Source: a virus. Taken from it: DNA of 64,000 nucleotides. Under the pieces are notes generated by a model that saw nothing but the letters and a program-made list of their open reading frames with translations, did not search any database and was not told where the DNA came from. Positions within the stretch are counted from its first letter, which is position 1, and the number at the start of each line of letters is the position of its first letter. The position numbers and the translations under genes are program-made. Shown here one piece after another: positions 1 to 60,190 of this stretch. The DNA is taken from the IMG/VR virus record IMGVR_UViG_3300045988_105796, one strand, 5' to 3'.

Positions 1-744
1 TAAATTATATATTACCTCATAAGCATTATTTATCTTAGGTTTATAAGTTTCTAATAATTCCTGATTGAAAGCTCTATCCAGATATAAACCATTCTTCTCT
101 ACAGTTTGTAATACCCTACTAGCAGGCATTATCATATTACGGAAAAGATTATACATATCCTTTTCTATAATCATTCTTTCGAAGAATATAGATAATCTGA
201 AAGTATAATCGGTATCTTGACAACCATATTGACATAGAGGTTCTAATGGTTTTTGATCCCAAGGTATCTTATCAAAACCCTTTTCACTTTCATAGTTAGC
301 AGCCCATGGTAAATATCTTTTTACCATATCTTTCAAACCATTTGGACGTTCTTCATTAAGAACATATTTAGCAAGCATACCATCTATCAAAGTACCTCTT
401 AGATATATACCATATTTTTCAAATATCTGTAAATCGAATTTAGCATTCCAAGCAATTTTAACGATATTCTTATTTTCAATTACTTCATGACCAAATCTTT
501 TTAGAGCCTTTAACCAATTCCATGTTCTATCAGTGTATTTCTTAGTTTCAAAATGATGTAAAGGTATTGAACATCCAAAACCTGGCATACAAGTTACTGA
601 TAATATGGTAGGCTTGAAATCCTTCTTATATATACCTTCTGCATTAGTCTCAAAGTCAATACAAGCATATCTAGTAGACTTACATAATTCTATAAGCCTA
701 TCTAAGTCTTTATATGATTTGATTATTTTATATTTAGTTCTCAT
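1..744 (-). CDS. Family A (Pol I-like) DNA polymerase: N-terminal 3'-5' exonuclease domain and start of the polymerase domain. The gene runs off the left edge, so its 3' end is missing.
   Basis: Not in the ORF track because it is truncated. Manual translation from the ATG at complement 742-744 gives MRTKYKIIKSYKDLDRLIELCKSTRYACIDFETN... It has DFET (Exo I), NAKFDLQIF (Exo II) and YGCQDTDYTFRL (Exo III) in Pol I order, then LQTVEKNGLYLD, which is typical of the start of the polymerase domain. Confidence 0.8.
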   Translation of the reverse strand, partial: MRTKYKIIKSYKDLDRLIELCKSTRYACIDFETNAEGIYKKDFKPTILSVTCMPGFGCSIPLHHFETKKYTDRTWNWLKALKRFGHEVIENKNIVKIAWNAKFDLQIFEKYGIYLRGTLIDGMLAKYVLNEERPNGLKDMVKRYLPWAANYESEKGFDKIPWDQKPLEPLCQYGCQDTDYTFRLSIFFERMIIEKDMYNLFRNMIMPASRVLQTVEKNGLYLDRAFNQELLETYKPKINNAYEVIYNL

Positions 745-764
745 CTCTACATATTACTAAAGAT

Positions 765-809
765 TAAAAATAAAAACGGGTATACCTAATATCACTACTA
801 AGTATACCC
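765..809 (-). terminator. Rho-independent terminator after the TS-fold gene
   Basis: Perfect 8-bp stem GGGTATAC (778-785) / GTATACCC (802-809). On the minus strand it is followed by GTTTTTATTTTT. Confidence 0.5.
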
Positions 810-839
810 TACCGAATAATAACTAATGAGCCACGAACA

Positions 840-1589
840 TTATACCTTATCCTTCATAAGATCATCTATAGATGATTTTAATAAAGGCCAGTCTTTCTTG
901 TAACAATGAAGAGAATCTATAGTATGAATGAGCATACCTGGTTTAACTCCTACCTTCTCTGCTACATATTCCATCATACACCATGCAAGATATACATCAT
1001 CTCCAAAATGTTGAACAAAATCTGAACTTCTCTGATGATAAGTAAGATTTAATCTTCCTTCTCTAACAAAGAAACCATAATATACTGAACAAGGGATTCT
1101 CTTATTACCTTCATAATAATTACAATCATTTCCAGTAAATATAGGGAGAACTGCTTTACGAGTATCTGGATCTGTTTTTAGCAATTCAATAACTGCTTCA
1201 AGAGCTGTAAGATTTTCTCCTCTGTATTTTACAAATCTATTGATACGATCTGCATAAGTATAATCGAATTTACCTTGTTTATCCAAGAATTGTTCCCACA
1301 TATCTTTTCTTTCAAGATAAGCAGTTCCAGGATTAACTGGATGACCACTGATTCTCTCTTTGAATTCCATCTCTGCCCATTTCTTAGCATGAGTGAAAAC
1401 AAATAGGTATTCTACATCAGGTAGATTTGTAATACAGTACTGTTTACAAAATTCTTCCTTAGTAATAAAATCTTCATTACCCTCGATCACTTTGTTCTGA
1501 TAGGTTTTAGGTTTAACCTCTGTACCCATTTCCCAAAGATCTCTGCTCATCTCTGACATGAGCTCTCTTGCATTACTATAAATACGCAT
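840..1589 (-). CDS. Thymidylate synthase (ThyA) fold enzyme. The active site looks like deoxycytidylate hydroxymethylase (T4 gp42-like) rather than a true dTMP synthase.
   Basis: Core IPCSVYYGFFVREGRLNLTYHQRSSDFVQHFGDDVYLAW. The catalytic Cys and the QRS Arg are 20 residues apart, as in ThyA. An Asp sits where ThyA has the specificity Asn (by-eye alignment). The length is 249 aa. Confidence 0.65.
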   Translation of the reverse strand: MRIYSNARELMSEMSRDLWEMGTEVKPKTYQNKVIEGNEDFITKEEFCKQYCITNLPDVEYLFVFTHAKKWAEMEFKERISGHPVNPGTAYLERKDMWEQFLDKQGKFDYTYADRINRFVKYRGENLTALEAVIELLKTDPDTRKAVLPIFTGNDCNYYEGNKRIPCSVYYGFFVREGRLNLTYHQRSSDFVQHFGDDVYLAWCMMEYVAEKVGVKPGMLIHTIDSLHCYKKDWPLLKSSIDDLMKDKV

Positions 1590-1626
1590 GTTTATTAATA
1601 TTTAATTGTTATATTCTTTTATAGAA

Positions 1627-2559
1627 TTAGCCTTTTCTATGTAGCTTAGCTAAATACTTCTTCTTATATTTCTTTCTCTGAGAATAAGTTATACAATTCT
1701 CTGGATATTCAATATCGTCATTTTCTATAACCAAATCTTTAGCTAGTAAAGGCTTATACTCAAATAAATCTGGACGCATTACCTTGAAACTTCTTAGGAA
1801 TACCTTATAAGTAGAGAATTCCTTCTCAGTACCTTTCATGAACTTATCATATACTTCTTTTATTCGGGTATACCATTCAGTGGTTTTATCCATCTTCTTA
1901 GTAACCTTCTTAAAAGATTTATGACCTCCACAGTACATAAGTAATGTTTCTATATTACCATACATCTGAGTAGCAAATATGTTGATCTGTACTCTCTGAT
2001 CTTTACCATAAACATATTCTGCCATTCTTTGTATTAGCAAGAGATCAAACATCAATCTCTTAGTAATCTCAGAAGCTCTCAGTACCATAGTAATAACTGG
2101 TATATCTTCTGAAAATCTCTTACTAAAGGTAGCAGCTAATAAGCATTGCTTACCATTATTATGTTTATTGTGGAAGAGGAATGATACATTGTAGTTTTGA
2201 TTATATCCTACAGTCTTCATCTTTATCTGAGACTTCAATAGATCTAACTGATTAAAGTCTAAGTAATTGTTTAAGAGTACGGTCCATTTTGATTGTGTGT
2301 AATTAAAATGGCGACCAAAATCGAAACTAGGATCAACCCAAGCATTTCTAATTTTAATGAATATGTTATATACTACTGCTACACCTGCATTAGCCACAGC
2401 TCCCTTGTTAAAGAGCTGTGGATCTAATGTTATAAAACCTTCGTTTAACTTCTCCCATGCTTCAGTAGAGGTAGCAAACTCTAAATCATGTACATGTTCA
2501 GAAGCATCAAAGGTCATGTTCTCAAATTTTTTATTCCATCCTCCCATATTAATAACCAC
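1627..2559 (-). CDS. Hypothetical protein; possibly a second, very divergent TS-fold protein
   Basis: Long ORF coupled to its neighbours. The segment GKQCLLAATFSKRFSEDIPVITMVLRASEITKRLMFDLLLIQ loosely mimics the TS Cys...R-S-x-D...(N/D) spacing. Confidence 0.6.
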   Translation of the reverse strand: MVINMGGWNKKFENMTFDASEHVHDLEFATSTEAWEKLNEGFITLDPQLFNKGAVANAGVAVVYNIFIKIRNAWVDPSFDFGRHFNYTQSKWTVLLNNYLDFNQLDLLKSQIKMKTVGYNQNYNVSFLFHNKHNNGKQCLLAATFSKRFSEDIPVITMVLRASEITKRLMFDLLLIQRMAEYVYGKDQRVQINIFATQMYGNIETLLMYCGGHKSFKKVTKKMDKTTEWYTRIKEVYDKFMKGTEKEFSTYKVFLRSFKVMRPDLFEYKPLLAKDLVIENDDIEYPENCITYSQRKKYKKKYLAKLHRKG

Positions 2560-3442
2560 TATTTTGACGGAAATGATTTACTCTGTTTTTCTTAAAACAT
2601 AGAGTATACAAAGTCTTAGGAATAAATCCCATTGTATAGAGATAACCCAGGTACTTAATTAATCCCAATGCTAATTGTTCACTATATCTAGTGATATCTG
2701 TTAATTCCTGTGACTGTTTCCAAGGTTTATTCTTTAAGAAGTTTCTAGATATATTAATATGGTATGCTACTCCCCACAACATATGATCTTCGCAACGATG
2801 AAAATCTTTATTGCTAAATCTAAAAGCAGGTATATATGAATTTACATGATCTACATCTAAGCCCATATCTTCAATATTAGCTTCGCTTAGAAGATTATAT
2901 CGGTAGTCCATATCTTCTAATTCTTCTTCTTTACCTTCAAGATCAAACATATAACTACCTAATAACATTAGATCAAGCATATTCTCAACTTTATCTCTGT
3001 TAATTCTAGCTACTAAATCCTTTAATTTAGCATTAGCATAGTTATAAATATCTTTAATCTCAAGATTAGCATACATCAACAAAGCCATATAAAAAGCCAT
3101 AGCATCTGCCTGCTCTTCATTGGAATTCTGAAGATTATTAGCTACCATTTGCCATTCAGAATCACTAAAGGTTTGGTTATTAAAACCATGATCTTGATAC
3201 ATATCAATAACTGCAGAAGTAGATTCATAACCCTCTGCTGTTTCCTCAATTACTCTTGCAGAAAAATCCTTTAGTACCTGTTGACCTTTGAAAGTATTAA
3301 TATCAATAGGAGGTAGTGGTAGATCTTTTTCGATCTTACCACAATATCCTTGCAATAGTTCAGCCTCTAGATTATATATAGCTTCTAAATAAGCTTCCTT
3401 TTCTACTACTGTAGGTATTTCTCTAATATTTCTAATATCCAT
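2549..3442 (-). CDS. All-alpha NTP pyrophosphohydrolase (MazG / dimeric dUTPase-dCTPase-like)
   Basis: Acidic metal-binding motifs IEETAEGYE and NEEQADAMAF, plus a C-terminal LKNKPWKQ motif typical of dimeric dUTPase-type enzymes. It sits inside the nucleotide-metabolism cluster. Confidence 0.5.
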   Translation of the reverse strand: MDIRNIREIPTVVEKEAYLEAIYNLEAELLQGYCGKIEKDLPLPPIDINTFKGQQVLKDFSARVIEETAEGYESTSAVIDMYQDHGFNNQTFSDSEWQMVANNLQNSNEEQADAMAFYMALLMYANLEIKDIYNYANAKLKDLVARINRDKVENMLDLMLLGSYMFDLEGKEEELEDMDYRYNLLSEANIEDMGLDVDHVNSYIPAFRFSNKDFHRCEDHMLWGVAYHINISRNFLKNKPWKQSQELTDITRYSEQLALGLIKYLGYLYTMGFIPKTLYTLCFKKNRVNHFRQNSGY

Positions 3443-3445
3443 AGT

Positions 3446-4027
3446 TTAATCTCCCTCTATATCGCTTGGATGAGTTGGTTCATATGTTCTACCTCCTTTA
3501 TCACCAGAGCCAAATCCATTAGTACCTCTAGTTCCCCAATTCTTTGATTCCTTTTCATAGGTATCATTATCTATCTCTTCTGGATTTGTAAGATAGATAG
3601 GAGTATGAATCATCTGTACCAAAGGTTCTCCAGCATTTATAGTTACTACTTGAGATGAGGTATTATAAACTGCCAAGTTATATTCACCTACATAAGGAGA
3701 ATCACAAATCTGAGCAGTAAAGATCAAACCTAATTTAGTAGATTTGCCAGATTTATTAGCTACCATCATCATTGAATCTTTTGGCTCTAATAAACCCCTA
3801 ATACCTGAAGGAATCTTAATCCTTGACTGTGGTTTAAGGTGAATCATAGTAACCTTTCCACCTTTTATACTAATGTTGAAAGCAGAAGGATCTGGATTTG
3901 CTTCAAACAAGTCTCCAATAGTTAAATCAGTTGGTACATAGAAGTCTAAACCAGCATCTCCTTCATTGTGACGAGTTGGTGATTTAACCTCTCTTACTTT
4001 TGTAAATCTAAATTTTGTTGTTGACAT
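3446..4027 (-). CDS. dut: Trimeric dUTPase / dCTP deaminase superfamily enzyme
   Basis: GDAGLDFYVP, ANKSGKS, ICDSPYVGEY and GEPLVQM motifs in the canonical dUTPase order. Confidence 0.8.
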   Translation of the reverse strand: MSTTKFRFTKVREVKSPTRHNEGDAGLDFYVPTDLTIGDLFEANPDPSAFNISIKGGKVTMIHLKPQSRIKIPSGIRGLLEPKDSMMMVANKSGKSTKLGLIFTAQICDSPYVGEYNLAVYNTSSQVVTINAGEPLVQMIHTPIYLTNPEEIDNDTYEKESKNWGTRGTNGFGSGDKGGRTYEPTHPSDIEGD

Positions 4028-4295
4028 AATAATATATTATTTGATGTAAAACGTCTCCATAGGTAAGTTCATCTATCTCTTTATATGTAATAGGTATAAA
4101 ATCTTCAGTACCTACGATTTCTTCTAGTTTCTTATTTATATTTTTAATAAAACTACTAACGTCAGTTTTCTTCATAAATACTTTGATAAGTATATCAGAT
4201 TGCTGAACCATGTAGTTTGGATTATTCAAATACCTACAGAATAGATACCAGATATATGGTATCATTTCCTTTATTAGTCCTTCTTGTTTATTCAT
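4008..4295 (-). CDS. Hypothetical protein
   Basis: 95-aa ORF overlapping both neighbours (translational coupling). Confidence 0.6.
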   Translation of the reverse strand: MNKQEGLIKEMIPYIWYLFCRYLNNPNYMVQQSDILIKVFMKKTDVSSFIKNINKKLEEIVGTEDFIPITYKEIDELTYGDVLHQIIYYYVNNKI

Positions 4296-4666
4296 TTCAT
4301 TTCTTTATAAATTTTCCTGATAGTTTTAGTAGGTACTTCATATTTAGCAGAAGTCTTCTCTACTATTTTCTTCCTATCAAAACCTTTTCTCTTTAATCCC
4401 CTAATATATTTCTTAATTGCCTTAACATCTTCGAGGATTTCAAGATCCTTATAATTATTCTCTTCTTCTAATTGTTTACGAGTTTTACCTAATGTCTGAG
4501 ACATCTTCAAACAACATAACTCAGAATCTCCACACATCCTACACTCTTTAGTAGTAAGATTATAACCTTTACCAAAGCAAGGATCTTTATCAGTACCGAT
4601 CTTTGATAAATCAAATGGTTCCAGGGGATCATGTTTAAGTAAATCTACTCCTTTACTCTTTTTCAT
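4292..4666 (-). CDS. Hypothetical protein with a Cys cluster and a basic C-terminus
   Basis: CFGKGYNLTTKECRMCGDSELCC followed by a Lys/Arg-rich tail. Possibly a nucleic-acid binder. Confidence 0.6.
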   Translation of the reverse strand: MKKSKGVDLLKHDPLEPFDLSKIGTDKDPCFGKGYNLTTKECRMCGDSELCCLKMSQTLGKTRKQLEEENNYKDLEILEDVKAIKKYIRGLKRKGFDRKKIVEKTSAKYEVPTKTIRKIYKEMK

Positions 4667-5243
4667 TTTTTATACTTTTAATTCCTTTATTGCAAATAGT
4701 TCTTGTTAAATACTTCTTTCTATCCTCTTGATAGCCTTCTGTATTTGTATATCCACAACATTTCATCTCAGGACAAAACCCTCTATATAAACAGGAAGGT
4801 ACACAATAACGAGCAAGTATAGGCTCTATTTTAGATAGCTCATCTATAACCATATTCCAAGCTAATCTAGTTACTTTATCAGCTCGATTACATAATCTTA
4901 CCTTAGATATGTTAATAAGTTCTTGAGCATTCATATAGAGTATCATATTAACAGGATCTGTTTGTTTTCGTGTAGATCTATCAACTCCAGTTATATCTCC
5001 TCTTGAGGTTGATACAAAAGGCTGAGCATGTACATGTCTTACTAAGTGACCCATGTTACAATAAGGGATATCCTTTATAGTTATCTCAAAATTTAATAAC
5101 CTCAAAGGAGAGTGTTCAGCTACTATCATATCTTCCTTAAAATTCTTGGAAGGTTCTTTCATTAAAGGGGCAAGGTTCTGAGTGAACCTTGCTGCATTCA
5201 GTACATCATTCCAAGATGTTTTACGTATTACGTTTACTTGCAT
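4653..5243 (-). CDS. thyX: Flavin-dependent thymidylate synthase (ThyX)-like protein, divergent
   Basis: AEHSPLRLL and LVRHVHAQPFVSTSR resemble the ThyX HxSxxE and RHRxxSxxxxSxR motifs, but the second Arg and one Ser are substituted. The protein is only 196 aa. Confidence 0.5.
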   Translation of the reverse strand: MQVNVIRKTSWNDVLNAARFTQNLAPLMKEPSKNFKEDMIVAEHSPLRLLNFEITIKDIPYCNMGHLVRHVHAQPFVSTSRGDITGVDRSTRKQTDPVNMILYMNAQELINISKVRLCNRADKVTRLAWNMVIDELSKIEPILARYCVPSCLYRGFCPEMKCCGYTNTEGYQEDRKKYLTRTICNKGIKSIKNEKE

Positions 5244-5264
5244 TATAAATCTAAAGTTAATATA

Positions 5265-5651
5265 TTAAACAACTTCTATAAGTTTTCTCAAAGCTTTGAA
5301 CACTTGGTGATCAGATTTCTTTGAATATAACCAATCCAAAGCCTTTAGTAAACGTTGATCATCCTCTACTGATAGGGTTATGGTTAATTGTCTAAACATA
5401 TCAGAAGGTATATCTTCATTAGGATATTTCTTCTGTAGAACCTTCTCTACATATAACCATTGATAGTTAGCCTTCTTAATAAGGTTAAGATTAGTCCTAT
5501 CCTTCTCCATCTGAGATTTAATCTTATTACAATCATTTAAGATCTCCTTAAATACTTCTCCATGAAGACCTAATAGGTTCTTTACTCTAGTCAGTGTATC
5601 TTTACCAACTAAACATTCTTCTAGTTTCTTTTCTAGTTCTGTACTTAACAT
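5265..5651 (-). CDS. Hypothetical protein
   Basis: 128-aa ORF in the operon. Confidence 0.6.
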   Translation of the reverse strand: MLSTELEKKLEECLVGKDTLTRVKNLLGLHGEVFKEILNDCNKIKSQMEKDRTNLNLIKKANYQWLYVEKVLQKKYPNEDIPSDMFRQLTITLSVEDDQRLLKALDWLYSKKSDHQVFKALRKLIEVV

Positions 5652-5653
5652 AA

Positions 5654-5968
5654 TTACTCTTCGTTTAAGTTTTTAATATTTTTTACTATAATTCCTTGGT
5701 TTTCTATTTCCTGTTGGATATACTTCTCTATCTTCTGAGCTTCTTCATAATTCTCTTCAGATATGAATTGATTCTGTATATCCTTTAACTGTTTTAGGTA
5801 CAGGGTACTTAGATAGTTCTTTATCATGTACTGATTACATAATAATACTCTGTATTTATTATCTAACTCCCGTACCTTATCAAAATAATACTTATGTATA
5901 TTACTTAATACTACTAACAGTAATAGATTGAGTATTATAAGAAGTATACTTATGATTGTATTAATCAT
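5654..5968 (-). CDS. Hypothetical membrane-anchored coiled-coil protein
   Basis: N-terminal hydrophobic helix IISILLIILNLLLLVVL, followed by a charged helical region. Confidence 0.6.
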   Translation of the reverse strand: MINTIISILLIILNLLLLVVLSNIHKYYFDKVRELDNKYRVLLCNQYMIKNYLSTLYLKQLKDIQNQFISEENYEEAQKIEKYIQQEIENQGIIVKNIKNLNEE

Positions 5969-6052
5969 TGCTTTATTTATTAAATTAATAATATGCTCAT
6001 TAGCCTTAAGCTTTATATCTTTCCCTAAAAGAAAAAGATATAATCTATTAGT

Positions 6053-7534
6053 CTATGCCTTAGCCTTGAAAGTATATTTGGTATATAACCTTGCTAGATT
6101 AATCACTTTCAATTTCTCTTGCCTATAGTATCTAGCTCTCTTTTTAGAATGTCTTCCTAAATATCTACCGGGATATTGAATATCATCTAGATAAACTCTA
6201 TTCTTACCCTCATAGGTTCTTACCAATCGTCCAAGGAATTGTATAGATTTCTCCTGTGAGTTCATCCCTGCTGCATTAATCATATATCTCAGTTTAGGGA
6301 AGTTCTTACCTCTGGCAATGATTGTAGTAGATATTAATATATCTATCCTACCTTCCCTAAAATTTTCCATTATACTTTTTCTTATATTAGCAGGAGTATT
6401 TACATGCACATAAGCAACTTTATATCGTAGATCTAGTGCATTAGATAAATACTTATATAAGTTTTCACAGTGTTTAATATATTTGCAAACTATGAGTGCT
6501 GGTAATCTACCATAAGTTATATTATATTTTAACCTATCCAATACTACCTTATAAGAATCTTTGTTCTCAATTACATTGGCATCATATTCTTCTTGATATA
6601 CTTTTATCTCTTTATAATTCTTAGGATATAAATCTATACAGGGTACCAGTTTAACTATAGTGTTAGTTGAATGACCAACCTTTATAGAATCCTTTATAGT
6701 AAACTTAAACATCTCTTTACCAAAGAAAGCCTCAAGATTCATATTCTTAAGTTTATCTTTAGCAAGGTTACTCATATAGATGGTACCTGATAAGCCTATT
6801 CTTACTCGAGTATTATATAGGTGAGTTAAAACGGTTTGGTACATTTTACTACCGGCTAAGTCAGCCTCGTCTACTAATACCATATCTACTTTAGCTAACT
6901 CATTCTGGTACTTCTTAATATTACGTGATATAGATTGTACCATTCCTATGCTAAAGTTAGACCAGTTCTCTACCTTACTACCTTGAATAAAGGTTATATT
7001 TTCATCTGGTAAATATTGCTTAAACTCTTTCTGAGATTGTCTTAGCCAATCAGCATCTTGAGTTATCAATAGTGTTTTAAGTTCTCTACCATAACTGTAA
7101 TATAAAGAAGACATTAGTAAACTCTTACCAAAGTTAACTGCAGCATTTACTACTCCGATATGAAAAGGTATATCTGCTATCTTATATTTTAAGATATTTT
7201 CTAGAGCCTGTAATTGTTCTTTACGTAAACTATAGTTACCAATGTTTTTAACTATCTTAGCTTTAGGTATAGGTCTTCTAGTATCTATGATTTTAATCTT
7301 CAATCCATATTCTTTCAACATTTGATAAACCCTTGGTAACATACCTATCTTAAATACTCCATATTTATTTAAGAAGTGTACTTTACCATCCCAGCCTCTA
7401 ACTTTCCTCATTAGATAAAAAGCTTGAGGATGTTTGATACTAAGTTCATCATATAACTTTACTGCATACTTTTGAGGTATATCTAATTCACACTCATTGC
7501 AGTTTTTAATAATGATCCTATTCATCTTCATCAT
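6053..7534 (-). CDS. Superfamily 2 DEAD/DExH-box DNA helicase
   Basis: Walker A NAAVNFGKS, Walker B VLVDEADL, motif III LSGT, motif VI QFLGRLVR. Confidence 0.8.
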   Translation of the reverse strand: MMKMNRIIIKNCNECELDIPQKYAVKLYDELSIKHPQAFYLMRKVRGWDGKVHFLNKYGVFKIGMLPRVYQMLKEYGLKIKIIDTRRPIPKAKIVKNIGNYSLRKEQLQALENILKYKIADIPFHIGVVNAAVNFGKSLLMSSLYYSYGRELKTLLITQDADWLRQSQKEFKQYLPDENITFIQGSKVENWSNFSIGMVQSISRNIKKYQNELAKVDMVLVDEADLAGSKMYQTVLTHLYNTRVRIGLSGTIYMSNLAKDKLKNMNLEAFFGKEMFKFTIKDSIKVGHSTNTIVKLVPCIDLYPKNYKEIKVYQEEYDANVIENKDSYKVVLDRLKYNITYGRLPALIVCKYIKHCENLYKYLSNALDLRYKVAYVHVNTPANIRKSIMENFREGRIDILISTTIIARGKNFPKLRYMINAAGMNSQEKSIQFLGRLVRTYEGKNRVYLDDIQYPGRYLGRHSKKRARYYRQEKLKVINLARLYTKYTFKAKA

Positions 7535-8357
7535 TTATTTTATTCCACAAACTACCTTCTATAGCATTGATATAATCTTCCTTAGAAGATTCAGAATGTT
7601 TGTACATAAACTTAGTGTAATAACCATAAGCCTTATCATTTACTAAGTTCTGAGGTTCTGGCATACCATTACACCAAGCTAATCCTTCAAATTGAGCATC
7701 TATCCAATTCCTATAATCTATATCTTCTTCGTTACACTTATTAGCTACATCCTTGAAGTAAGCATATAGACTTGGTTGATTGGTATAATCAACTCTAATA
7801 CCAGTTCTGTTTACAATGGTTTTACAATAATAATCATGTATCTCTTTAGTAAATTCAGGATCTGAATCTTCTAATAACTCCTGTTTAGATTGATAAGTCT
7901 TAGAAATTTCTTCAGACATGTTTAATAAGCTGTTAAGATAAGATTTATGATTCCTATTTTTTAATAGGTTTAATCCTGTCTTAATATACTCAATGTAACC
8001 TGCTCGGGTTTCTAATTCAAAATCCTTACAGAAGGTATTACAAATATCGGCTAACTTTTTACAACTTGCCCACAATCTTGGTTGAGATTCTTCTATCTTT
8101 CTAACACCTTTGAACTTCATACTTACTTGAACAGAGTAGAAGATGTTAGCTGCAAGGTTAGCATCACCCAAGCTTGCTAGAGCAATATTATTAGCTTTCT
8201 TTCTATTCTTACTGCTTTTAATCAACATAATTCTAGTATTTACAGCACTTTGCTTAGCATTAACGAAAAAATCCTCCACTGGGAAGGATTTTACACCAAG
8301 TTCTTTTAATAATTCCTTGAACTTAGTTTTTGTTATGTGTATACTGGGATCTCTCAT
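7518..8357 (-). CDS. Hypothetical protein of the replication module
   Basis: 279-aa ORF overlapping the helicase gene. Confidence 0.65.
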   Translation of the reverse strand: MRDPSIHITKTKFKELLKELGVKSFPVEDFFVNAKQSAVNTRIMLIKSSKNRKKANNIALASLGDANLAANIFYSVQVSMKFKGVRKIEESQPRLWASCKKLADICNTFCKDFELETRAGYIEYIKTGLNLLKNRNHKSYLNSLLNMSEEISKTYQSKQELLEDSDPEFTKEIHDYYCKTIVNRTGIRVDYTNQPSLYAYFKDVANKCNEEDIDYRNWIDAQFEGLAWCNGMPEPQNLVNDKAYGYYTKFMYKHSESSKEDYINAIEGSLWNKINDEDE

Positions 8358-8587
8358 TATTTATATCCTCGTATTTTATTTACTATTTCTTTATCAGCTC
8401 TACAAAATATAGTCATACCTAAAGCTGCCGATATAATAGCATAAAGTAGGGTTAATACCACTGATAAGATTCCTTCGGGTATATAGATTACTATTAATAG
8501 AATAACTCCGAACCAGATCAGTATAGCTAATACACTGATTAAACCTATTAACAGGTTGGTTAAAAATTCTTTAATAAATGATTTCAT
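8357..8587 (-). CDS. Small membrane protein
   Basis: 76 aa with two hydrophobic helices. Confidence 0.55.
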   Translation of the reverse strand: MKSFIKEFLTNLLIGLISVLAILIWFGVILLIVIYIPEGILSVVLTLLYAIISAALGMTIFCRADKEIVNKIRGYK

Positions 8588-8628
8588 ATTATTTTTAATT
8601 ATTGTTATATACTAATATTGGATTTACC

Positions 8629-9582
8629 TCAATCCAAAGAGTTCTTGATTCTAATAAGTTCTTGATAGTCTTGGTATCTAGTGTTATATACTAATTTAAG
8701 CACTTCTGTTTTACCAAGATCATTGCAATCTTTACCATCTGGAAGAAACACTACCTTTACTTTCTTAAAATCTACTAATTTTAAGGCAAGGCTTATAGCA
8801 TAATGTTTAGCATCTGGATCAAGTAATATTATAATATGCTCTACTGGAGCTTTAATAATTTCATTTACTTGATAAGCAGATATGGCTTTACCCATAGTAG
8901 CTATACCTCTTTCACCCATAGTCAAAGCATTGATTGCACCTTCACATAAGTAGACTGACTTATACATTTGCATAGCGTCAAAATTGAATATAAGAAACTC
9001 CTTCCCAAGCCCAGTGATGTCCTTATTTGGATTGTTGTATCTTGGACCTGTTCCCATAACGTTACGGGCATTGTAATAGCGAAGCTCTCCATTGTAGTAA
9101 AATGGTATAATGAGATACCCAAATAACGGTCCTTCGTTACAGTACCCAATGCCAAGTCTAGACAATCTATCAATTTGAAAACCTCTCTTTCGGATATACC
9201 TTTGCATTCCAAGAGCCAGTTGACTGGTACCAAAATTGATATTACGGAATCCTTCTGGTAGATATACGGGCTGTTTACTCGGCAACTCGACTTTCTCCTC
9301 TTTAAACTCCAGTTCATCAAAGTTTCCATTGTTCAAATATTTAATAAGTTCACTATACGTTTCTAAGTTCTCTATATCCATTACCATTTGAGCAGGGTTA
9401 GGATGAGAGTTACATCTGAAACAATTACACCTATATAGAGATAGATTAACTCCCATCTTTTCTTCTCTGCCACAGTATGGACAAACGGGTACTCTTAACC
9501 ACCCATGTTTATACTCAAAAGCTCCTAACCTTTTTATAAAGTAGGAGTACAATTGAGACTTAAATTTAGAGGTTATCTTCAT
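8629..9582 (-). CDS. DnaG-type DNA primase (zinc finger plus TOPRIM)
   Basis: Zinc finger CPYCGREEKMGVNLSLYRCNCFRC. TOPRIM residues YLCEGAINALTM and IILLDPDA. Confidence 0.8.
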   Translation of the reverse strand: MKITSKFKSQLYSYFIKRLGAFEYKHGWLRVPVCPYCGREEKMGVNLSLYRCNCFRCNSHPNPAQMVMDIENLETYSELIKYLNNGNFDELEFKEEKVELPSKQPVYLPEGFRNINFGTSQLALGMQRYIRKRGFQIDRLSRLGIGYCNEGPLFGYLIIPFYYNGELRYYNARNVMGTGPRYNNPNKDITGLGKEFLIFNFDAMQMYKSVYLCEGAINALTMGERGIATMGKAISAYQVNEIIKAPVEHIIILLDPDAKHYAISLALKLVDFKKVKVVFLPDGKDCNDLGKTEVLKLVYNTRYQDYQELIRIKNSLD

Positions 9583-11771: not shown

Positions 11772-11886
11772 TTTCTTGTAGCTGTTTTATTTATGTATTA
11801 TAATAGAAATTATAGAAACCAGTATCTTAACTATCTAGAACCACTGACTAATCCTCAGCTCTATGGTTAAATTTCTGAGTATTTAT

Positions 11887-11920
11887 TTGCATATTATATA
11901 TAAAATAATTATATTTGCAA
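11887..11920 (+). promoter_or_regulatory. Bacteroidota-type sigma-A promoter cassette
   Basis: TTGCATATTATATATAAAATAATTATATTTGCAA: -33 TTG, -7 TATATTTG (TAnnTTTG), G-to-G spacing 28 nt, 19 nt upstream of the ATG at 11939. Confidence 0.65.
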
Positions 11921-42923: not shown

Positions 42924-43014
42924 GAATAAGGATTAAATTTATAGGTACATTTTTAACCTATAACCTTATTCATCCTTCGGATGAAAGTAACTACCTCGTA
43001 AACTCGGTAGTTAC
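42924..43014 (-). terminator. Cluster of three consecutive hairpins after the methyltransferase gene
   Basis: GAATAAGG..TTATAGGT-loop-ACCTATAA-CCTTATTC; then CATCC-TTC-GGATG; then GTAACTACC-10 nt-GGTAGTTAC, which overlaps the stop codon. Confidence 0.5.
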
Positions 43015-44015
43015 GATAGTAGACATTTCTTAAACCATTTACCTACTTGATATACAGATCCTTTAGCTATGGTATATCTTGCTTTATTCAACCAGTATAG
43101 ATAATTATCTTTATCCATGTAGATCTTATATTCATCTGGGAAACCCATGATATTTTTGAAATCCTTTATACCAAGAGGATAACCATCAGGTCTAAACTGT
43201 CTATCTGCAGGCCTTAAAGTCAATGGAGGTTTATCATACTCTAATCTATATACTCCAGGTAGAGTAGACATCTTAGCTGTCTTAATAGGCCATTTCTTTT
43301 CATCCTTGAAATCAGTTCTCCAAAGTTTCTTAATCTGTTTAACGGTAAGATTTTTCTTTTCAGGTAAAGCCCTATAATCATACATCGCTAATATTTTATT
43401 TAACGGCGGCATATAATTATCATTATTTTCCTTAAAATAGGGACATTCTAGTAATTTTCTAGAGCTTACAGGAGTGTCTACTCTAAATATATTGTCGAAC
43501 TTATTTAAGTAACTCTTAGACTTAATTTTAATTCCTACAATAATTAACCTTTTCCTTGATACTTGTGAATTACCAAAATCTACTACAGAACGTTGATGAT
43601 AAATTAATTTATAACCGGGTACCTGTATTTCAAAAAATTCCTTTGGCAATAGAGTTACTAATCTTGGTAAATTCTCTAATAAGAAAACCTTAGGTCGGTA
43701 TTTATTAATGGCCTGAATAACTAAATTCAAGGATTTATTCTCTTCTGGCTTACCTAATTGTTTAACTTTAGATAACCTCATTATAGAAGAAGCTCCACAA
43801 TCTGGACTTGATATAATTACATCAGCCTTAATATCTGGTAGTTCATTTCTCAAAAAAGGTATATCTCCAAAGTTCAACTTCCACTGTTCTTCATTCTTGG
43901 TATGAAATACGGCTCTAGGTTCTATATTAGCAACTAAATTCTCTTTAAACGGAAACAGCAGGGCTCCTTGCCCTGCTGATACTCCTAAAACCCTTAAATG
44001 CTTCATCGTAGACAA
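43011..44015 (-). CDS. DNA (cytosine-5) methyltransferase
   Basis: Motif I VSAGQG, motif IV SSPDCGASS (catalytic Cys), motif VI FLLENL, motif VIII SQVSRKRLIIVG, GFPDEY, and motif X-like AKGSVYQV. Confidence 0.75.
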   Translation of the reverse strand: MSTMKHLRVLGVSAGQGALLFPFKENLVANIEPRAVFHTKNEEQWKLNFGDIPFLRNELPDIKADVIISSPDCGASSIMRLSKVKQLGKPEENKSLNLVIQAINKYRPKVFLLENLPRLVTLLPKEFFEIQVPGYKLIYHQRSVVDFGNSQVSRKRLIIVGIKIKSKSYLNKFDNIFRVDTPVSSRKLLECPYFKENNDNYMPPLNKILAMYDYRALPEKKNLTVKQIKKLWRTDFKDEKKWPIKTAKMSTLPGVYRLEYDKPPLTLRPADRQFRPDGYPLGIKDFKNIMGFPDEYKIYMDKDNYLYWLNKARYTIAKGSVYQVGKWFKKCLLS

Positions 44016-48703: not shown

Positions 48704-48740
48704 CAATGCAAAGATACGGACTATTTTTTTATTATGCAAA
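48704..48740 (-). promoter_or_regulatory. Bacteroidota-type promoter cassette
   Basis: The minus strand reads TTTGCATAATAAAAAAATAGTCCGTATCTTTGCATTG, G-to-G spacing 28 nt. Confidence 0.6.
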
Positions 48741-49879: not shown

Positions 49880-49913
49880 TTGCAAAGATACTAATAAATT
49901 TTTAATCTACAAA
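49880..49913 (-). promoter_or_regulatory. Bacteroidota-type promoter cassette
   Basis: The minus strand reads TTGTAGATTAAAAATTTATTAGTATCTTTGCAA, spacing 27 nt. Confidence 0.55.
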
Positions 49914-50578: not shown

Positions 50579-50613
50579 TTGCAAAGGTAGTAATAATATT
50601 TTAATTATACAAA
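50579..50613 (-). promoter_or_regulatory. Bacteroidota-type promoter cassette
   Basis: The minus strand reads TTTGTATAATTAAAATATTATTACTACCTTTGCAAAG, spacing 28 nt. Confidence 0.6.
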
Positions 50614-51489: not shown

Positions 51490-51524
51490 TTGCAAAATTA
51501 CTATATTTATTTTATATATGCAAA
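51490..51524 (-). promoter_or_regulatory. Bacteroidota-type promoter cassette
   Basis: The minus strand reads TTTGCATATATAAAATAAATATAGTAATTTTGCAA, spacing 28 nt. Confidence 0.6.
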
Positions 51525-54153: not shown

Positions 54154-54894
54154 TTAATCATTCTCTAAATCATTGTACATTGCTTCTACATAGTTAACTA
54201 TGCGTTCATATTCTCTTCCAGAAACCAGGGTATCCAGGTTTGCCTTATCTATTAGTTCTGTACTAGTACCGTAGAAGCAGCCTACTGCCCACATTCTGTT
54301 TGACCTGGTGTATGTAAATGATCTTCCACTTGACCAAATATTCTTTCCTACGTAGTAGTCTCCATTTTTACTAATTTCTGCATGACCTTTGATCTCTGCT
54401 TGGTATCCAACTTCTGCATCTCCATAAATCCTAGCATCCTCATAAATCTTAGCATTGCCAAATACCTTAGTATTCCCATAGACCTGAGCACTGCCATATA
54501 CTAGTGACTTATTAGAGATACTAGCATTTCCATAGATTTTAGCATCATCATAGACTTCAGAATCTCCGTATACTCCAGCAGTATCAAATACTTCAGCCTT
54601 TCCATAAATTTGAACATTGTCTAGTATCTCTGCATATCCGTATACCTTTGCATGTTCACATATTTGGACATTATCCATAATTCTAGCATTTCCAGATACT
54701 TCAGCCTGATCATATACCTTAGCATCATCGTGGATCCAACAATCACCCTCATGACTAAGATTTTTTTCATTTTCTATATAGCCTCCTCGTTGTCCTTTTT
54801 TAATTCTTCCAAAGTCTCTTACAGCTTCTATCCTGTACAGCTTGTGATATTCAAATTCAATTACCTGATCTTCAATTAATTTATACTTTTGCAT
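54154..54894 (-). CDS. Hexapeptide-repeat (left-handed beta-helix type) protein
   Basis: 20 contiguous hexads (AKVYDQ AEVSGN ARIMDN VQICEH AKVYGY ... AEIKGH AEISKN), flanked by non-repetitive N- and C-terminal domains. Confidence 0.65.
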   Translation of the reverse strand: MQKYKLIEDQVIEFEYHKLYRIEAVRDFGRIKKGQRGGYIENEKNLSHEGDCWIHDDAKVYDQAEVSGNARIMDNVQICEHAKVYGYAEILDNVQIYGKAEVFDTAGVYGDSEVYDDAKIYGNASISNKSLVYGSAQVYGNTKVFGNAKIYEDARIYGDAEVGYQAEIKGHAEISKNGDYYVGKNIWSSGRSFTYTRSNRMWAVGCFYGTSTELIDKANLDTLVSGREYERIVNYVEAMYNDLEND

Positions 54895-60155: not shown

Positions 60156-60190
60156 TTGCAAAATTAATACTTTATTTTTAATCGTGCAAA
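60156..60190 (-). promoter_or_regulatory. Bacteroidota-type promoter cassette
   Basis: The minus strand reads TTTGCACGATTAAAAATAAAGTATTAATTTTGCAA, spacing 28 nt. Confidence 0.6.

Follow-up and report, generated by a model that had tools for sequence, protein, structure and literature searches.

The genes at positions 840-5243 of the virus record IMGVR_UViG_3300045988_105796, a stretch of 64,000 nucleotides from a gut phage, referred to here as the window, probably form a pre-replicative cassette which makes a C5-modified cytosine nucleotide for DNA, using the logic of phage T4 with a different set of enzymes. The core of the cluster consists of a thymidylate synthase-like (TS-like) enzyme, a second protein of the same fold, denoted X, and an all-alpha NTP pyrophosphatase. 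An initial annotation of this region, made from the sequence alone, had proposed a cytosine modification pathway, and the sequence features it described are all present at their coordinates on the minus strand. Its inventory of the cluster was correct for the genes listed, including the NTP pyrophosphatase and the dUTPase, both of which are borne out by profile and motif evidence; it overlooked X, the second TS-fold gene inside the cluster. The genes of the cluster are:

840-1589, minus strand: TS-like enzyme, 249 amino acids (PF00303, 1e-20)
1627-2547, minus strand: X, diverged second TS-fold paralogue, 306 amino acids (fold and profile match)
2549-3442, minus strand: all-alpha NTP pyrophosphatase of the dimeric-dUTPase (dUTPase_2/MazG-clan) family, 297 amino acids
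3446-4027, minus strand: trimeric dUTPase, 193 amino acids (PF00692, 9e-12)
4653-5243, minus strand: ThyX-like protein, 196 amino acids (Pfam Thy1, 2e-6; AlphaFold2 model)

The TS-like enzyme

The product of open reading frame (ORF) 840-1589 belongs to the TS superfamily. In addition to its match to the Pfam family Thymidylat_synt (PF00303, E=1e-20), it matches phrog_160 (5e-30) and carries C167, R187, S188 and D190, the R-S-x-D element following 20 residues after the Cys. The same spacing separates C146 from R166 in E. coli ThyA, as had been pointed out in the initial annotation. HMMER alignments to solved TS structures equate Cys167 with the nucleophile and Arg187-Ser188 with the QRS motif, and they place D198, the second Asp of a 'GDD' element, on the Asn of 'PFNIASY'; among the PDB sequences matched, the N229D mutant of the L. 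casei enzyme outscores the wild type. A MAFFT alignment with E. coli ThyA and T4 dCMP hydroxymethylase, the reference sequences having been checked and found 100% identical to their PDB entries, likewise aligns D198 with N177 of ThyA and D179 of the T4 enzyme. The Asp first assigned to this position by eye is thus upheld by two methods. Asp at ThyA position 177 denotes dCMP as the substrate (PMC13326640). D198 is invariant in 30 homologues (60-91% identity) and in all carriers of the cassette, whilst the first Asp of 'GDD' (position 176 in ThyA numbering) is D or N among the 30. C167, R187, S188, D190, H228, Y230, Y112 and R144 are also invariant in these homologues, and Y112, R144, C167, R187, D190, D198, H228 and Y230 are in register with both ThyA and the T4 enzyme.

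Other active site positions are unusual. Three residues before the Cys, where ThyA has Leu143, stands Arg164, and His194 occupies the position of Gly173, a Gly in both ThyA and T4 dCMP hydroxymethylase; Arg164 and His194 are both invariant. Positions 143 and 173 each lie less than 6 Å from C5 in ThyA (PMC13326640). S168 is found in place of His147 of ThyA, a position at which T4 dCMP hydroxymethylase and the phage HY126 enzyme AfhB have Thr, and which ranked second in MetaGPA for discriminating modified contigs. The protein ends some 19 residues after the H-x-Y motif, without the C-terminal tail by which ThyA closes its active site for hydride transfer, the reductive step that forms the methyl group (PMC6400193).

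Judged by these residues, the TS-like enzyme fits none of the four classes for which diagnostic residues have been published, namely those producing methyl-dU, methyl-dC, hydroxymethyl-dC and hydroxy-dC. Canonical ThyA is defined by Asn177, Leu143, His147 and the C-terminal tail, in place of which D198, R164, S168 and a truncated C-terminus are found; scores against the NCBIfam ThyA equivalog models are 29-64 bits, with cut-offs of 108-427 (for example 56 against 327). The dCMP methylases of the XP12/PaMx74 type combine Asp177 with a ThyA-like tail, a criterion drawn from one characterised lineage rather than from a curated definition; here the Asp is present and the tail is not. The flavin-dependent 5-hydroxy-dCMP synthases are marked by Asn at position 169 (PMC13326640), where Asp190 is invariant in the present family. 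The T4-type hydroxymethylases share with the TS-like enzyme both the Asp at the specificity position and the absence of the tail. However, a carboxylate at position 143 marks the hydroxymethylases, and in the T4 enzyme this residue, Asp145, activates the substrate water, such that the D145N mutant is inactive (PMC6400193). Its counterpart, Arg164, is invariant throughout the gut-phage family, in Clostridium perfringens phage CPAS-15, in Mycobacterium phage Muddy and Gordonia phage Emalyn, in the environmental phage ctfzr933, and in the metagenomic loci L006, L008 and L097-L106. A further mark of the T4-type enzymes is a Ser or Thr near the catalytic Tyr; the region equivalent to T4 Ser94-x-Tyr96 reads Y110-T111-Y112 here, in a register unlike S-x-Y (by sequence alignment only), and Ser or Thr immediately precedes the catalytic Tyr in every carrier.

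The predicted activity of the TS-like enzyme is the transfer of a one-carbon unit to C5 of dCMP, and in architecture the enzyme resembles the non-reductive ones. A methyl product is the less likely reading, because the C-terminal tail is absent, as in T4 dCMP hydroxymethylase, and because the PaMx74 dCMP methylase retains both the ThyA tail and Gly173. The leading guess for the product is 5-hydroxymethyl-dCMP, with His194 activating the water. Since the T4 signature fails at Asp145, replaced by the invariant Arg164, and His194 stands in place of Gly173, this product is not established, nor is the label of dCMP-hydroxymethylase-like enzyme that the initial annotation had applied.

X, a second TS-fold protein

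X is encoded between the NTP pyrophosphatase and TS-like genes and has an alternative GTG start at 2559. Searches with X against Pfam, NCBIfam and PDB sequences returned no significant match, and it falls in a single PHROG of unassigned function; a scan of 71 members of its family against Pfam was equally negative. More generally, phmmer and profile searches of X, the NTP pyrophosphatase and the ThyX-like protein against PDB sequences yielded no usable match. The family is nonetheless well populated, an exhaustive search recovering around 136 clusters at 50% identity, and among relatives of the window X is 65-85% identical, a figure above that of the neighbouring genes.

Structural and profile comparisons indicate that X has the TS fold and is a highly diverged paralogue of the TS-like enzyme. 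A confident AlphaFold2 model built from 30 homologues has a mean predicted local distance difference test (pLDDT) score of 82.6 and a predicted template modelling score (pTM) of 0.83. Foldseek matches to the model are almost exclusively with the TS family, the best being the CMP hydroxymethylase MilA (6e-5), and they include the phage HY126 dCMP hydroxylase AfhB, T4 TS, T4 dCMP hydroxymethylase and models of phage gp42 proteins. A TS-like core is recognisable by eye ('GKQC135 ... R157ASE160ITKRLxFD168'), and when a profile of the 71 diverse members is aligned to the TS-like profile by hhalign (E=0.004), Cys135 pairs with Cys167, Arg157 with Arg187, Glu160 with Asp190 and Asp168 with Asp198. 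The four residues of X are therefore in register with C146, R166, D169 and N177 of ThyA. BLASTP comparisons of single X members with TS-like proteins over the same segment reach E=5e-4, and in two loci the TS-like protein itself matches the X model at 1e-5.

Cys135, Arg157 and Asp168 are invariant in the 71 members, which argues that X may bind a cytosine nucleotide and engage in covalent catalysis, and is no dead scaffold. Glu160 is found in 90% or more of the members, the X-like proteins of Muddy and Emalyn being exceptions. Subunits of TS contribute an Arg-Arg pair to each other's phosphate site; X lacks this pair. Two longer members of the family, P0277 and P0281, were considered as possible fusions of X with a TS-like protein and proved not to be fusions. 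In one environmental phage (locus L106, IMGVR_UViG_3300017700_000830) a second X-like ORF is found at 6545-7312, about 1 kb downstream of the X-TS-like pair, with E=9e-16 to the X profile.

The NTP pyrophosphatase and trimeric dUTPase

The NTP pyrophosphatase matches Pfam dUTPase_2 through its C-terminus only, just under the family cut-off (E=3e-4, 21.5 bits against 22.9), and phrog_12184 at 1e-13. It contains EExxE, EExxD, LKNKPWKQ and KKxxxNxFRQxSGY motifs, and together the profile match and the ExxE/ExxD metal-binding motifs identify it as an all-alpha NTP pyrophosphatase. Homologues sharing its motifs are encoded by CPAS-15 (6e-27), Muddy (gp48, 5e-17) and Emalyn (gp49, 5e-10). The CPAS-15 protein is a bona fide dUTPase_2 member (1.4e-11) which has EExxE, EExxD, KPWKQ and FRQxSGY in common with the protein of the window. 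The enzyme is a candidate dCTPase/dUTPase that would supply dCMP. The neighbouring trimeric dUTPase is recognised by PF00692 (9e-12), TIGR00576 (1e-14) and phrog_135 (2e-20), and is present in all 69 of 69 related IMG/VR loci.

Conservation and spread of the cassette

Gene order was surveyed in 80 IMG/VR loci of the same phage group, counts being taken only where the flanking sequence suffices. The order is dUTPase, NTP pyrophosphatase, X and TS-like enzyme: X is followed by the TS-like gene in 77 of 77 loci and preceded by the NTP pyrophosphatase gene in 75 of 76. In 10 more distant IMG/VR loci the TS-like gene lies beside X in all nine with enough downstream sequence, and the NTP pyrophosphatase gene is upstream of X in eight. 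Remote X proteins, with 23-43% identity, occur in the same three-gene order in other metagenomic phages. The cassette is also carried by C. perfringens phage CPAS-15 and its relatives, and the X profile detects Muddy gp47 (3e-8), Emalyn gp47 (7e-9) and a gene of ctfzr933 (1e-19), each upstream of a gene annotated 'thymidylate synthase'. The three-gene cassette is found on hundreds of contigs from gut viromes; close relatives of X are encoded on at least 448 IMG/VR contigs, and homologues of the TS-like gene number more than 1,000. One gut record of this phage group, IMGVR_UViG_3300009959_000002, encodes an X protein with 99% identity to that of the window.

All of the TS-like partners share Arg143, Ser/Thr147, Asp169, His173, Asn/Asp176, Asp177 and a short C-terminus. 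In several lineages the X and TS-like genes overlap by 4-14 nucleotides, and the NTP pyrophosphatases of the cassettes are mutually homologous. Gene order and the partner signature across lineages, together with the absence of X from PaMx74, indicate that X and the Arg143/His173 subfamily of TS-like enzymes are inherited as a pair.

Further genes accompany the cassette. A thymidylate-kinase-like kinase (phrog_761) adjoins it in CPAS-15, Muddy and Emalyn, and in close relatives of the window a P-loop kinase with a weaker match to the same group is encoded some 7 kb downstream, at a point past the left end of the window. A dCMP-deaminase gene is found beside the cassette in metagenomic locus L006 and in Emalyn. 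In the records of the cultured carriers X is annotated either as hypothetical or, mistakenly, as a glycosyltransferase. The CPAS-15 homologue of X (CPAS15_0021, 5833-6582 of locus L004), which belongs to phrog_34294 of unknown function, is described as 'colanic acid biosynthesis glycosyltransferase WcaC', and the adjacent P-loop kinase, a member of phrog_761 (thymidylate kinase), as 'shikimate kinase'. Both CPAS-15 annotations look like mis-annotations.

Proposed pathway

The sequence work shows which folds are present, that the catalytic residues are conserved and that the genes stay linked in different lineages; from this the biochemical steps may be envisaged as follows. If it acts like T4 gp56, the NTP pyrophosphatase would cleave dCTP, and possibly dUTP as well, to the monophosphate. 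Cys167 of the TS-like enzyme would then attack C6 of dCMP, with Asp198 recognising the cytosine, and the enzyme would move the one-carbon unit of methylene-tetrahydrofolate to C5 without reduction. The resulting exocyclic methylene intermediate would most likely be captured by water or another nucleophile, since the tail that seals ThyA for hydride transfer is absent. This would yield 5-hydroxymethyl-dCMP or a dCMP with a related substituent at C5, Arg164 and His194 perhaps standing in for the water-activating Asp145 of the T4 enzyme. X, whose gene is often translationally coupled, may work together with the TS-like enzyme as a subunit of a hetero-oligomer, or it may take part through a second step directed at C5. 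Phosphorylation of the product and its entry into DNA would fall to the thymidylate-kinase-like kinase and PolA, and the dUMP/dTMP branch to the trimeric dUTPase, joined in this clade by the ThyX-fold protein.

This scheme retains the logic of gp42 and gp56 in T4 that had been suggested in the initial annotation, with an Asp-bearing TS-fold enzyme and an all-alpha NTP pyrophosphatase; the hydroxymethyl product, one of the options proposed there, is not established. The accompanying suggestion of modified virion DNA is favoured by the kinase of the relatives and by a link to metaviromes, in that neighbourhoods combining TS(Asp), a MazG-like protein and PolA are enriched in cytosine-modified metavirome contigs (PMC8670742; bioRxiv 10.1101/2024.12.05.627091). 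Complete substitution of cytosine, on the other hand, fits poorly with a C5 methylase gene in the window, considered below.

Comparison with known systems

Phage T4 encodes the dCMP hydroxymethylase gp42, the dCTPase/dUTPase gp56, the dNMP kinase gp1 and the thymidylate synthase td. The cassette resembles this set in having a TS-fold enzyme with a Cys nucleophile and an Asp at the specificity position, in pairing this enzyme with an all-alpha NTP pyrophosphatase and a nucleotide kinase, and in keeping a separate dTMP branch. At the level of the enzyme itself, the Cys is followed by Ser/Thr, the specificity Asp is preceded by Asn/Asp, position 169 is Asp and a C-terminal tail is lacking, all as in T4 dCMP hydroxymethylase; the differences are the Arg in place of the essential Asp145 and the His in place of Gly175. 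X, the obligately linked second TS-fold protein, has no counterpart in T4, and the NTP pyrophosphatase is of the dUTPase_2 family, the kinase is thymidylate-kinase-like and glucosyltransferases are absent. T4 dCMP hydroxymethylase is not among the best 60 of the 122 PDB sequence matches (E up to 1) of the TS-like protein.

The best PDB sequence match (2.3e-11) is with the 5-hydroxy-dCMP synthases HY126 AfhB and RB69 gp48 (PDB 9iqu and 9iqc), which are flavin-dependent TS homologues. These share with the TS-like enzyme the short architecture, Asp177 and Thr/Ser147, and they are also among the best fold matches of X. They differ from it in their D169N substitution (PMC13326640), where the present enzyme has Asp190, and in having Glu at position 143, where it has Arg. 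A 5-hydroxy-dCMP synthase identity, suggested by AfhB as the top PDB match, was ruled out on the D169N criterion.

Clusters of the XP12/PaMx74 type comprise a TS with Asp, an NTP pyrophosphohydrolase, a dCMP deaminase and dihydrofolate reductase (DHFR). Asp177, the adjoining NTP pyrophosphohydrolase and a nearby PolA are common to these clusters and the cassette. By contrast, the PaMx74 enzyme has the ThyA C-terminal tail, Gly173 and Asn143, and is without an X partner.

Gene order is shared with several cultured phages. Muddy (gp49-gp46), Emalyn (gp50-gp46) and the C. perfringens phages CPAS-15, CPD4 and CP3 have the order kinase, NTP pyrophosphatase, X-like protein, TS-like enzyme and PolA, and their TS-like enzymes carry R143, S/T147, D169, H173, N/D176, D177 and the short C-terminus. 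The kinase gene adjoins the cassette in these carriers, in contrast to a distance of some 7 kb in the phage group of the window. This group also adds the trimeric dUTPase, and the present clade the ThyX-fold gene.

Counter-evidence and alternative explanations

Several points weigh against a cassette for C5-modified cytosine. The T4-type Asp/Glu before the nucleophile is replaced by Arg164, and the sequence of the NTP pyrophosphatase does not discriminate between dCTP and dUTP as its substrate. The case for homology between X and TS is built on structural matches whose TM-scores are only 0.4-0.5 and on a profile alignment that is weak. The window also encodes, outside the cassette, an apparently intact C5 DNA cytosine methyltransferase (43011-44015, minus strand; PF00145, 8e-14), which would be left without a substrate if all cytosines were C5-substituted. 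Its motifs read SAGQGA, SPDCGASS, ENL and QxSRxR; motif IV has P-D-C instead of P-C, whilst motifs I, VI and VIII look normal, and the related GenBank record MT121964 likewise names a DNA cytosine methyltransferase. Since such a methylase would be pointless on fully C5-substituted DNA, its presence favours partial modification or a rerouting of the nucleotide pool. A literature search for biochemical or DNA-composition data on cassette carriers found none, and no report of modified DNA was found for Muddy, a heavily used phage; nothing relevant emerged on modified DNA in actinobacteriophages or C. perfringens phages, or on a pair of TS paralogues.

Sequence composition has some bearing on the question. 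Certain palindromes are strongly depleted in the window (TTTAAA, 4 against 58.9 expected; ATGCAT, 0 against 7.4; CATATG, 5 against 23.4), and the avoided palindromes carry no C or one C per strand. The GC-containing four-base palindromes GGCC, CCGG, GCGC, AGCT, TGCA and TCGA are not avoided. The pattern fits C-rich sites being protected by cytosine modification, and is suggestive at best.

If the TS-like enzyme were instead a dCMP methylase of the XP12 type, it would make 5-methyl-dCMP, and 5-methylcytosine (5mC) would replace C in the virion. The same Asp177 is what makes a dCMP methylase out of TS (Liu and Santi 1992, cited in PMC8670742), 5-methyl-dCMP was the product of five of the seven TS(Asp) homologues from metaviromes that lie beside deaminases (bioRxiv 10.1101/2024.12.05.627091), and the dCMP-deaminase gene beside the cassette in locus L006 and Emalyn is as found in 5mC phages. 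Yet the 5mC-producing PaMx74 enzyme has a ThyA tail of around 50 residues and Gly173, and no X neighbour, whereas the present subfamily is tail-less, has His173 and is always paired with X; the tail is what seals the hydride-transfer site, and although the reductive reaction yields dihydrofolate, no DHFR gene was seen near the cassette. We regard this explanation as distinctly unlikely. A rerouting of the pool, in which both TS-fold enzymes would give a C5-substituted dCMP intermediate, to be turned by deamination or other processing into dTMP or a related precursor, with the DNA remaining canonical or partly modified, is also improbable, if slightly less so. Phage deaminases selective for 5mC turn 5-methyl-dCTP into dTTP (bioRxiv 10.1101/2024.12.05.627091), deaminase genes adjoin the cassette in the two loci just mentioned, the C5 DNA methylase of the window implies unmodified cytosines in the DNA, and a covalent C6 adduct on cytosine would be prone to C4 deamination, which X might exploit. 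Against this, the cassette in the window has no deaminase gene, its dUTPase and ThyX-fold protein could already cover the supply of dTMP, and the genes found along with the cassette, for an NTP pyrophosphatase and a dedicated kinase, give it the layout of base-replacing phages.

Ordinary thymidylate synthesis, with ORF 840-1589 as a divergent ThyA converting dUMP to dTMP, is the explanation to which we attach least credence. Databases label all of the relatives thymidylate synthase and a dUMP-supplying dUTPase is encoded in the same cluster, but this is countered by the invariant Asp for Asn177, Ser/Thr for His147 and Arg for Leu143, by the missing tail, and by the scores far under the NCBIfam ThyA cut-offs. 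A bolder proposal, which we put forward as a tentative one, is that the Arg143/His173 TS-like enzyme and X jointly produce a previously undescribed cytosine nucleotide. The Cys of X might re-form the methylene from 5-hydroxymethyl-dCMP and pass it to a nucleophile other than water; alternatively, X and the TS-like enzyme might form a heterodimer of the TS type with a single composite active site. Overall, synthesis of a C5-modified cytosine nucleotide for DNA is the reading that we prefer.

The ThyX-like protein

The ThyX-like protein matches Pfam Thy1 (2e-6) over its C-terminal part only, and its motif reads RHVHAQPFVSTSR, where the family form is RHxHxQPxVSTSR. Its AlphaFold2 model (pLDDT 85.8) shows the whole of the ThyX fold and matches 142 ThyX structures at E<=1e-3, with TM-scores of 0.55-0.62 over the full length. 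In an alignment with the verified sequence of T. maritima ThyX, H53, R78, H79 and R174 have invariant counterparts in the family; that of R90 is kept too if the motif is aligned without a gap, the alignment being uncertain beyond RH at 11% identity. At this same 11% identity, R80 appears replaced by Val, S83 by Gln, E86 by Val and Y91 by Gly or Pro. About 45 residues of the ThyX helical insert are missing. A C-terminal extension contains four invariant Cys (CxxxC-x5-C-x5-C, residues 147-163), none of which occurs in canonical ThyX, and may constitute a metal or Fe-S site. A profile match of the protein to HIV gp120 among PDB sequences was dismissed as an artefact of the Cys-rich tail.

The initial annotation was right about the altered signature but described it as degenerate. 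A search recovered 813 homologues, the altered motif is fixed in this family of over 800 proteins, and because it is fixed in so large and conserved a family the gene is not decaying. The protein is a divergent and probably functional accessory enzyme, possibly a minimal flavin-dependent dTMP synthase. Its gene is present in only 11 of the 69 related loci, and members of the family are also found apart from the cassette, as in bajarodcaudo virus 1, where thioredoxin and dUTPase genes lie alongside.

Genomic context

The cluster belongs to a minus-strand run, one block of genes, which covers positions 1-9582 of the window. Its other members are:

1-744, minus strand: N-terminus of a family A DNA polymerase, 3'-5' exonuclease domain (translation YACIDFETNAEG)
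4008-4295 and 4292-4666, minus strand: two small ORFs (95 and 124 amino acids; the one of 124 is Cys-rich)
between 5265 and 5968, minus strand: small ORFs
6053-7534, minus strand: SF2 helicase
8629-9582, minus strand: primase

The polymerase (PolA) starts around 95 nucleotides 3' of the stop codon of the TS-like gene, contains a DFET motif and leaves the window at its left end. In the related loci L002, L003 and L016 PolA follows the TS-like gene, and the genes after PolA in relatives encode a gp32-like single-stranded DNA-binding protein, RecA, FEN, a thymidylate-kinase-like P-loop protein and Mre11/Rad50-like proteins. The small ORFs of 4008-4666, between the dUTPase and ThyX-like genes, have no significant family match; other small ORFs occupy this gap in L002 and L003, so that its content is variable. 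As the initial annotation had stated, neither a dNMP kinase nor a glycosyltransferase was found among the ORFs of the window that were scanned. A hexapeptide-repeat (left-handed beta-helix) transferase-like ORF of 246 amino acids (54154-54894, minus strand; Pfam Hexapep, 7e-10) lies among small early genes.

Elsewhere the window encodes the structural module of a tailed phage, including terminase, head, tape measure and baseplate. The GC content is around 32%; a crAss-like affiliation, suggested by this low value, was ruled out because a tape measure, a baseplate and a head module of the myo/sipho type are encoded. A megablast search of the first 12 kb against GenBank phages gave zero matches, indicating no close cultured relative. 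The Bacteroidota-type promoters noted in the initial annotation receive some support: the pattern TTTG-N18-22-TAnnTTTG occurs 9 times against 2.1 expected, a number reached in none of 100 shuffles. Sites include 48709-48740, 49883-49913, 50582-50613, 51493-51524 and 60159-60190 on the minus strand and 11886-11917 on the plus strand; several begin with TTTGCATA and are located in gaps between genes within the early region.

Significance

Base modifications of phage DNA defeat restriction and CRISPR defences, hamper sequencing and engineering, and have yielded useful enzymes. The type of pathway described here is known; what is new is the subfamily of enzymes with Arg143 and His173, its obligate pairing with the TS-fold protein X, and the wide distribution of both. 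The cassette is common and crosses host phyla, and it is present in phages used or proposed for therapy, namely Muddy and the C. perfringens phages. The existence of cultured carriers makes the question directly testable. The identity of the product would widen the residue code by which the chemistry of phage DNA is predicted from sequence, and the case bears on whether two TS-fold proteins can cooperate. Should the cassette indeed make an undescribed nucleotide, there would be an unrecognised DNA base in Muddy, in the C. perfringens phages and in an abundant group of gut phages.

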